In this document: in pieces, positions 8,325-8,368 of the stretch | Numbering within the stretch: position 1 is the first letter of the stretch | How the letters are laid out: every line of letters starts with the position of its first letter | DNA from: Escherichia coli | Lineage (GTDB): Bacteria > Pseudomonadota > Gammaproteobacteria > Enterobacterales > Enterobacteriaceae | DNA length: 64,000 nucleotides | Strand: one strand, 5' to 3' | Assembly (NCBI RefSeq): GCF_030013595.1 | Contig: NZ_CP122768.1 | Notes under the pieces: model-generated | What the model was told of the DNA's origin: nothing | Database searches by the model: none | Seen by the model: the letters and a program-made list of their open reading frames with translations, nothing else | Translations under genes and position numbers: made by a program

Positions 8325-8368
8325 AAAGGTAACTTCCCTCTCGCGGGGGAAGTTACCTTTCTTTTTTT
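8325..8368. promoter_or_regulatory. 13-bp perfect inverted repeat (aaaggtaacttcc N10 ggaagttaccttt) followed by T7 tract, 25 bp upstream of ygcW start
   Basis: Read directly from sequence; terminator-like or operator-like. Confidence 0.35.

Follow-up and report, generated by a model that had tools for sequence, protein, structure and literature searches.

A two-state leader before ygcW of Escherichia coli, probably opened by the GlpP-family protein YgcP

The stretch of Escherichia coli chromosomal DNA analysed here (64,000 nucleotides, in the following the window) carries the ygc gene cluster, in which two operons diverge from one intergenic region. On the plus strand ygcW (8393..9178), an SDR oxidoreductase gene by annotation and Pfam, is the first gene under the leader described below and is followed by ygcU (FAD-linked oxidase), ygcS (MFS transporter), and ygcR and ygcQ (electron transfer flavoprotein subunits). 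On the minus strand yqcE (6800..8077), an MFS transporter gene by annotation and Pfam, is followed by the FGGY kinase gene ygcE (5295-6773), the two forming a second operon under the same leader type. Further to the right and convergent lie ygcN (ETF-QO-like oxidoreductase), ygcO (ferredoxin-like), and ygcP (13893..14468, minus strand), the last about 5.5 kb from the ygcW leader hairpin. The product of ygcP, annotated as 'glycerol-3-phosphate responsive antiterminator', matches Pfam PF04309 (G3P_antiterm) over its full length (173 of 173 profile positions, E = 1.4e-62), and its nearest solved relatives, PDB 3KTS and 1VKF, are 'glycerol uptake operon antiterminator' proteins. A literature search for functional work on ygcP, ygcU, ygcE, ygcN, or the cluster found none. 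In the surroundings, a CRISPR repeat array (~4261-4656) lies between queE and ygcE, as annotated in an identical ETEC record (L001 10202-10597); the matching ETEC record has ygcG (~2085-2957) as a pseudogene, broken by an internal stop, and a Hok/Gef toxin gene (~21351-21503) just before cas3, right of cysH.

The ygcW gene is preceded by a perfect inverted repeat, with arms of 16 nt each (8323-8338 and 8347-8362) set 8 nt apart. As RNA, the repeat forms a stem of 19 bp with 8 G-C pairs, closed by a 4-nt loop (5' arm 8322..8340, 3' arm 8345..8363), with a minimum free energy of -31 kcal/mol; shuffled sequences average -12.2 +/- 2.7 (z = -7.1) and none of 200 is as stable. A U tract follows at 8362..8368, leaving 24 nt between its end (8368) and the annotated ygcW ATG (8393). 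The original prediction had described a 13-bp repeat with a T7 tail shortly before the ygcW start; repeat, tail, and distance are as it said, the repeat being larger. It had also remarked that no upstream gene in this divergent region needs a terminator on this strand, and indeed yqcE diverges from 8077 and no co-directional gene lies upstream of the hairpin. A terminator scan ranks the hairpin first among the terminator-like sites in 12 kb. It has the G+C-containing stem and the U tract of an intrinsic terminator, and its 3' ends in vivo, as published, are Rho-insensitive. The ygcW-yqcE intergenic region is 100% identical to that of an ETEC strain and is found in 5046 of 5426 complete E. coli genomes; the leader element is carried by 5061 of the 5426 and has orthologous counterparts in several phyla, so that the hairpin is unlikely to have arisen by chance. 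The length of the U tract varies within E. coli, both before ygcW (T7 in the window, T9 in K-12, L082 199-207) and before yqcE (T7 or T8); this polymorphism could tune the basal efficiency of termination.

Beyond the original prediction, the region holds a mirror element before yqcE and an upstream antiterminator strand, and the cluster includes the GlpP-family gene ygcP. The mirror element (8102..8163, minus strand), which corresponds to the catalogued RNA ecr2775 and is recognised by a covariance-model match of 56.7 bits, by folding, by Northern blot, and by Term-seq, begins with AAUUACU (8163-8157), of which AUUACU (8162-8157) forms the 5' strand of a short helix, P1, and is followed by AGAGA; the 3' strand of P1, AGUAAU, lies at 8142-8137. 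The terminator hairpin of this leader (8148-8109; -21.8 kcal/mol, z = -4.3) runs into a U7 tract (8108-8102) that ends 24 nt before the yqcE ATG. Both hairpins open with GAGAAA(A/G)GUAA on their own transcribed strand, and in both leaders a conserved GUUAC(C/U)-AGAGA-N4-GAGAAA(A/G)GUAAC segment precedes the terminator. A search of the 64-kb window with the covariance model R1, described below, found no third copy before ygcN-ygcO-ygcP or before ygcS.

Each leader lies downstream of a CRP-type promoter. For ygcW, the 16-mer TGTGATTACGATCACA (8256..8271) is a CRP site by ChIP-seq in ETEC (PMC4287617) and by Footprint-seq (Kd 1.7 nM; PMC12871828), is also predicted as such by PhyloScan, and is centred at about -41.5 from the inferred transcript start, a class II position. 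A putative extended -10 element, TGaTAAAAA (8289..8297), recurs as TGnTAAAAA at the same offset in enterobacterial orthologues; since it is conserved there and fits both CRP at -41.5 and the mapped RNA 5' end, we prefer it to the -10 TATGAT (8287-8292) proposed by a simple promoter scan, which we set aside. The transcript starts within 8302..8306, where the 5' end of the catalogued RNA ecr2774 maps and where A8306 begins AGUUACC; we infer the exact nucleotide. For yqcE, the second CRP-like site TGTGAGAGTAATCACG (8198..8213) is predicted from its sequence, and its centre would lie at about -41.5 from the leader start if placed relative to the mapped ecr2775 5' end; spacing to the same end suggests TGtTATTTC (8171..8179, minus strand) as the putative extended -10 element. 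The extended -10 elements of both leaders are kept in orthologues. Before ygcW, the hairpin thus lies between a promoter (CRP site, -10 element, and mapped leader 5' end) and the first gene of the operon, as expected of an attenuator.

Transcripts of both leaders have been catalogued in K-12 as 'potential novel sRNAs' (Romero et al., 2014, Table S5): ecr2774, 73 nt long, upstream of ygcW on the same strand, and ecr2775, 63 nt long, upstream of yqcE on the same strand and confirmed by Northern blot. In length, and in the 139 nt that separate their 5' ends, they agree with the two leaders independently of any coordinate conversion. When they are placed on the K-12 sequence (L082) with an offset from U00096.2 to U00096.3 that we take to be +1978, ecr2775 extends from the first A of AAUUACUAGAGA to the end of the U tract, and ecr2774 from 4 nt before AGUUACC to 5 nt past the U tract. 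With coordinates, lengths, and strands in agreement (from AGUUAC or AAUUAC to the U tract), the catalogued RNAs are the same molecules as the leaders. Term-seq records 3' ends at -38 of ygcW (40,640 reads, intrinsic score 15.8, Rho score 0.50, 'No') and at -36 of yqcE (1,557 reads, intrinsic score 11.4), both outside Rho termination regions and neither with a regulatory element noted (Adams et al., 2021). These ends (NC_000913.3 2900311 (-) and 2900556 (+), corresponding to ~8357 (+) and ~8112 (-) in the window) fall 3-6 nt inside the 3' arms of the two stems and not in the U tracts, unlike the RNA-seq boundaries of ecr2774 and ecr2775 from the other study, which extend through the U tracts; the inward position speaks against the reading given below and may be due to 3' trimming through the A-U-rich stem base. 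In the published entries the two RNAs figure as simple stem-loop sRNAs, possibly REP-like, and the 3' ends as uncharacterised; neither attenuation nor an antiterminator helix nor YgcP is brought into connection with them.

With a CRP promoter upstream, a Rho-independent Term-seq 3' end at the hairpin, and a catalogued 73-nt leader RNA, the attenuator that the original prediction had listed as one option for the ygcW hairpin is almost certainly the right one. Its further option of a small structured RNA holds to the extent that the terminated leader accumulates, and in no other sense.

The sequence that precedes the terminators has the form (A)GUUAC(C/U), 0-4 nt, AGAGA, N4, GAGAA(A/C)(A/G)G(U/C)(A/G)AC. 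In the ygcW leader its first part, GUUACC (8307..8312, plus strand), pairs with GGUAAC (8328-8333) to form P1, as judged by folding and covariation, and the helix encloses the purine-rich loop AGAGA-UAAU-GAGAAA (8313..8327), a proposed protein recognition site by its conservation. GUUAC(C/U) is complementary to (G/A)GUAAC in the 5' arm of the terminator and identical to the matching segment of the 3' arm; the P1 5' strand and the terminator 3' arm therefore compete for one partner, and as GGUAAC lies within the terminator 5' arm, P1 and the terminator helix are mutually exclusive. The nascent 32-nt RNA folds as P1, at -6.7 kcal/mol for ygcW and -1.4 kcal/mol for yqcE, and the full leaders fold as the terminator, at -33 and -21 kcal/mol, respectively, so that termination is the default and the antiterminator needs a factor to hold it. 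The P1 of yqcE taken by itself is marginal (z = -0.1 at its -1.4 kcal/mol), which counts against a switch.

The covariation of P1 speaks for one. Across 57 leaders aligned with MAFFT, the P1 positions are paired in 84% of cases, against 21-57% when the strands are slid relative to each other, and this count is conservative, since MAFFT misplaces about ten leaders whose loops are 1-4 nt longer. An alignment-free count gives the same picture: a fully complementary hexamer lies 10-24 nt upstream in 80 of 86 unique leaders, compared with 2.8% of shuffles. Three of the P1 pairs switch on both sides, from G-C to A-U, from A-U to G-C, and from U-A to C-G, in 8-9 sequences each. The helix thus reads GUUACC/GGUAAC or GUUACC/GGUGAC in Escherichia- and Citrobacter-type ygcW leaders, AUUACU/AGUAAU in enterobacterial yqcE leaders, and GUUGCU/AGCAAC or GUCGCC/AGCGAC in Actinobacteria. 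Three positions change together, C8312, G8328, and C8357 of the E. coli ygcW leader being U, A, and U in most other leaders. In the ygc leaders, a second helix that excludes the terminator and takes up part of it is thus backed by covariation, and we regard the P1 switch as very probable. AGAG, which lies outside any helix, and GAGAA are invariant across phyla or nearly so (conservation of at least 90%); the invariant GAG..A..G together with the unpaired AGAG point to an element whose sequence is recognised, and not only its structure, as would fit a protein site.

The distribution of the element was followed from an alignment of YgcP homologues, from which 80 loci were fetched, one genome per species: 61 with a ygcP homologue beside ygcW/ygcU, and 19 that were glpP-only or truncated. 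In a tblastn map, ygcP shares a cluster with ygcW, ygcU, and ygcE in Enterobacterales, Vibrio, Clostridia, Bacilli, Spirochaetes, and Actinobacteria, and a blind search for hairpins followed by T runs upstream of the cluster genes returns the same element almost everywhere, for example as GAGAGAAAAGUAACUUCCCC...GGGGAAGUAUGCUUUUCUCUC-U8 in Halobacillus and as GAGAACAGCAACCUCC...GGAGGUUGCUGUUCUU-U4 in Arthrobacter. Aligned, 52 distinct hairpins share 17 pairs, which are 91.9% paired, as against 55-66% when the partner is slid; ten pairs of the stem are altered on both sides, and none of 500 shuffles matches the covariation score. G-U pairs are common, with G-U in 13 of the 52 at the stem base and U-G in 28 of the 52 at the column pair 13/43; since such pairs exist on one strand alone, the transcribed one, it is the RNA that is under selection and not a DNA palindrome. 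The palindrome for a DNA-binding regulator that the original prediction had also considered is disfavoured by these pairs and by the compensatory changes, both of which follow RNA rules. For the same reasons it is highly improbable that the element lacks conditional read-through and serves as a constitutive brake, an insulator, a transcription-factor operator, or a REP-like palindrome, even though in E. coli its arms match perfectly as a palindrome in the DNA. A constitutive terminator or an operator would give the covarying antiterminator strand upstream nothing to do, and a dispersed or REP-like repeat was rejected for its copy number, the element occurring at a median of two places per E. 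coli genome (maximum four, not hundreds) and at two sites in the 64 kb.

The covariance model R1, built from the alignment of 52 hairpins, was run on the window and the 80 loci (1.5 Mb), with matches of at least 43 bits counted as strong. In the window it finds only 8318-8373 (plus strand, 57.2 bits) and 8098-8152 (minus strand, 56.7 bits), and the reverse complements of both sites score much lower. The 80 loci yield 99 strong sites, spread over Enterobacterales, Vibrio, Clostridia, Bacilli, and Actinobacteria. In 94 cases the site is in sense with a ygc-type operon whose first gene starts 13-147 nt (median 25) downstream, this gene being ygcW in 46 cases, a yqcE-type transporter gene in 39, ygcU in seven, and ygcE in two. 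At least one strong site is present in 56 of the 61 ygcP loci with ygcW/ygcU (two sites in 41 of them), in a sample that was gathered via ygcP and so has the co-occurrence of motif and ygcP built in for that direction; in the remaining five, matches are weak (four loci) or absent (one). The 19 glpP-only or truncated loci are all without a strong site. In an exact-pattern scan of 241 million metagenome records, the 89 loci found are all ygc clusters, mostly from close relatives of E. coli since the pattern was enterobacterial, and ygcP is present wherever the contig extends far enough. A permissive cmscan of 7000-9500 against Rfam 15 returned no family match, only chance miRNA and snoRNA hits (E = 1.2-7.2) far under their gathering scores.

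The other five of the 99 strong sites comprise one without an ORF within 300 nt and four before an ORF of about 516 aa for a BCCT-type transporter, in Clostridia and Bacilli (L045 8079-8130 (+), L046 11586-11637 (-), L048 7063-7114 (+), and L053 9789-9842 (-)). A Pfam check, made on L045 only, identifies the transporter there as BCCT (betaine/carnitine/choline; PF02028, E = 5e-118). A transporter of this kind under the motif hints that the substrate of the pathway may be other than a simple sugar.

The closest precedent for such a leader is the glycerol system of Bacillus subtilis, in which GlpP, loaded with glycerol-3-phosphate, binds the antiterminator of the glpD leader and thereby overrides the leader terminator (PMC7430163; PMC9604022). 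In both systems a PF04309 protein is present, the leader terminator (of glpD, glpFK, and glpTQ in B. subtilis) directly follows the promoter, and the 3' strand of a weak 5' hairpin falls within the terminator 5' arm. In the glpD leader (sequence from PMC9604022, Table S4), GGUC...GAGAUGAGGAGA...GACC precedes and overlaps the 5' arm in the same layout as in the ygc leaders, and GGUC-CUGAGAUGAGGAGA-GACC can be set against GUUACC-AGAGAUAAUGAGAAA-GGUAAC of ygcW, both with GAGA/GAG repeats in and next to the 3' strand. The likeness is limited to these repeats and the general layout, sequence identity being low; the glpD terminator folds at -42 kcal/mol, and a single-sequence fold of the glpD P1 is not significant (z = -1.2). 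The parts of the two systems correspond in role, with GlpF or GlpT matched by YqcE and YgcS as transporters, GlpK by YgcE as FGGY kinase, and GlpD by YgcU with the ETF YgcQR and YgcNO as flavoprotein dehydrogenase; in both, the leaders also control the gene of an FGGY kinase, whose product is a candidate for the inducer. The regulons differ, however: ygc leaders control genes for an SDR, an FAD-linked oxidase, ETF/ETF-QO proteins, an FGGY kinase of another subfamily, and MFS or BCCT transporters, and the glycerol and glycerol-3-phosphate genes glpFK, glpD, and glpTQ are not among them. The ygc promoters are, moreover, CRP-dependent, and the RNA motif is a different one, as R1 has no strong match in the 19 glpP-only loci. 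The ygc system is thus GlpP-like with a different regulon, outside the glycerol regulon.

Six of the glpP-only loci (L061, L068, L073, L076, L077, and L081) have a different terminator leader about 50-100 nt upstream of glpP, AAGAGUUAGAGACAAGAGCAGAG..., a sequence carried by the glpP leaders of Blautia, and a Lachnospiraceae glpP leader (L074) contains GAGAUGAGGAGAG, the very sequence that forms the core of the B. subtilis glpD leader. GA-repeat loops overlapping a terminator thus look like a trait of the family, whose exact motif seems to vary with the GlpP clade.

In other systems, BglG/SacY/LicT acting on RAT elements and HutP acting on hut, catabolic operons are likewise terminated by default and opened by a protein on RNA that overlaps the 5' half of a leader terminator; HutP, in particular, reads spaced NAG repeats that resemble the spaced (A)GAG(A) repeats of the ygc leaders. 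The proteins of these systems are, however, of unrelated fold (CAT-PRD proteins; the HutP hexamer), RAT is a 29-nt imperfect hairpin with bulges, and the PTS phosphorylation logic is absent from ygc. The cmscan of 7000-9500 returned no match of the ygc leaders to a RAT or hut family.

Taken together with the PF04309 match of YgcP, the overriding of the glpD leader terminator by GlpP leads us to propose the two E. coli hairpins as targets of YgcP. Transcription from the CRP-dependent promoter would start at ~8302-8306, giving an RNA that begins AGUUACC. By default, the hairpin and U tract would form and transcription would stop 24 nt before ygcW, releasing a leader RNA of ~65-73 nt (ecr2774). 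In the alternative state, GUUACC would pair with GGUAAC to form the weak antiterminator hairpin, whose loop would display AGAGA-N4-GAGAAA; effector-loaded YgcP would bind and stabilise this hairpin, sequestering the terminator 5' arm, and RNA polymerase would read through into ygcW-ygcU-ygcS-ygcR-ygcQ. The equivalent leader on the opposite strand would control yqcE-ygcE. As the roles in the ygc cluster parallel the logic of GlpK, glycerol-3-phosphate, and GlpP, the effector of YgcP would be, on inference only, the phosphorylated product of the co-regulated kinase YgcE. The switch would turn on an uncharacterised sugar or polyol pathway. The ygcW hairpin is thus, in our judgement, probably the intrinsic terminator of a two-state leader of GlpP type that YgcP opens for the ygcW-ygcQ operon, a reading for which structure, conservation, covariation, CRP binding, short transcripts, and Rho-independent 3' ends supply the directly supported part.

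That YgcP is the effector protein is suggested by gene co-occurrence and by the precedent of its family: a PF04309 protein is encoded with the regulated genes and co-clusters with them across phyla. This makes its involvement likely, although ygcP itself belongs in E. coli to another operon, the convergent ygcNOP, from which the motif is absent. Attenuation might instead be relieved by another factor, be it a different RNA-binding protein, ribosome stalling on a leader peptide, a tRNA, or an sRNA; but ygcP is the only regulator gene kept in the cluster across phyla, and we consider another factor unlikely. Of these factors, a leader peptide seemed to be offered by an ATG at 8320 that opens a frame of 42 codons through the hairpin; it was rejected, as this ATG has no Shine-Dalgarno sequence and is AAG, GAG, or AGA in most other phyla, which retain the switch.

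Somewhat less likely still is that ecr2774 and ecr2775 are mainly trans-acting small RNAs and the hairpins merely their terminators. They do accumulate as discrete RNAs of 73 and 63 nt in LB and in M9 glucose, one of them is seen on Northern blots, and the read count in Term-seq is high (40,640 for ygcW). In every phylum, however, the element lies in sense 13-147 nt before the start of an operon with no promoter between, which is the signature of a cis-acting leader, and its conserved parts are the elements of the switch and not a seed-like single-stranded region. A secondary role in trans, such as titrating YgcP, may be added to that of a leader.

A riboswitch that works without protein, in which a small metabolite bound by the leader itself would decide whether antiterminator or terminator prevails, would suit the two-state architecture with its conserved unpaired loop. 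The part that would serve as aptamer is, however, only a helix of 6 bp enclosing 15 nt of purine loop, which is too simple by the standard of known metabolite aptamers; GA-repeat loops are typical of protein sites, as in HutP and GlpP; in 56 of 61 loci the motif accompanies the gene of a dedicated RNA-binding antiterminator; and Rfam has no match. We rate it as a shade more doubtful than a mainly trans-acting RNA.

Returning to a leader opened by YgcP, a broader proposal can be made, which we hold to be slightly better than evenly balanced. The two E. coli leaders and YgcP would be the enterobacterial representatives of an undescribed RNA family that extends across phyla: a two-state leader of 60-70 nt, whose AGAGA-N4-GAGAAAAG loop would be the recognition site of a separate clade within the GlpP family; these proteins would carry the phosphorylated YgcE product as ligand in place of glycerol-3-phosphate. 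The family would constitute a second GlpP regulon, serving an orphan ETF-linked pathway for a polyol, sugar, or amine. The abundant terminated leaders ecr2774 and ecr2775 might also buffer free YgcP. Were this so, E. coli K-12 would gain a pair of catabolic operons under an RNA-binding antiterminator of GlpP type, such as has until now been studied in Bacillus, and two unexplained catalogued sRNAs as well as two orphan Term-seq 3' ends would be accounted for. The motif is compact, has clear covariation, is absent from Rfam, and can be scanned for genome-wide; the system is a tractable one for the genetics of RNA recognition by GlpP-family proteins, and a fusion of the leader to a reporter would provide a direct screen for the inducer or substrate of the cluster (YgcW, YgcU, YgcE, the ETF proteins, and the transporters).

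Within the ygcW operon, between ygcU and ygcS, lies a further G+C-rich hairpin, CGGCTTCTCAGGCGAGAAGCCG (10743-10764, plus strand), with a weak T run. It is kept in Escherichia, Citrobacter, and Raoultella loci, its sequence is unlike the leader motif, and it may serve as an attenuator inside the operon or as a site of processing.
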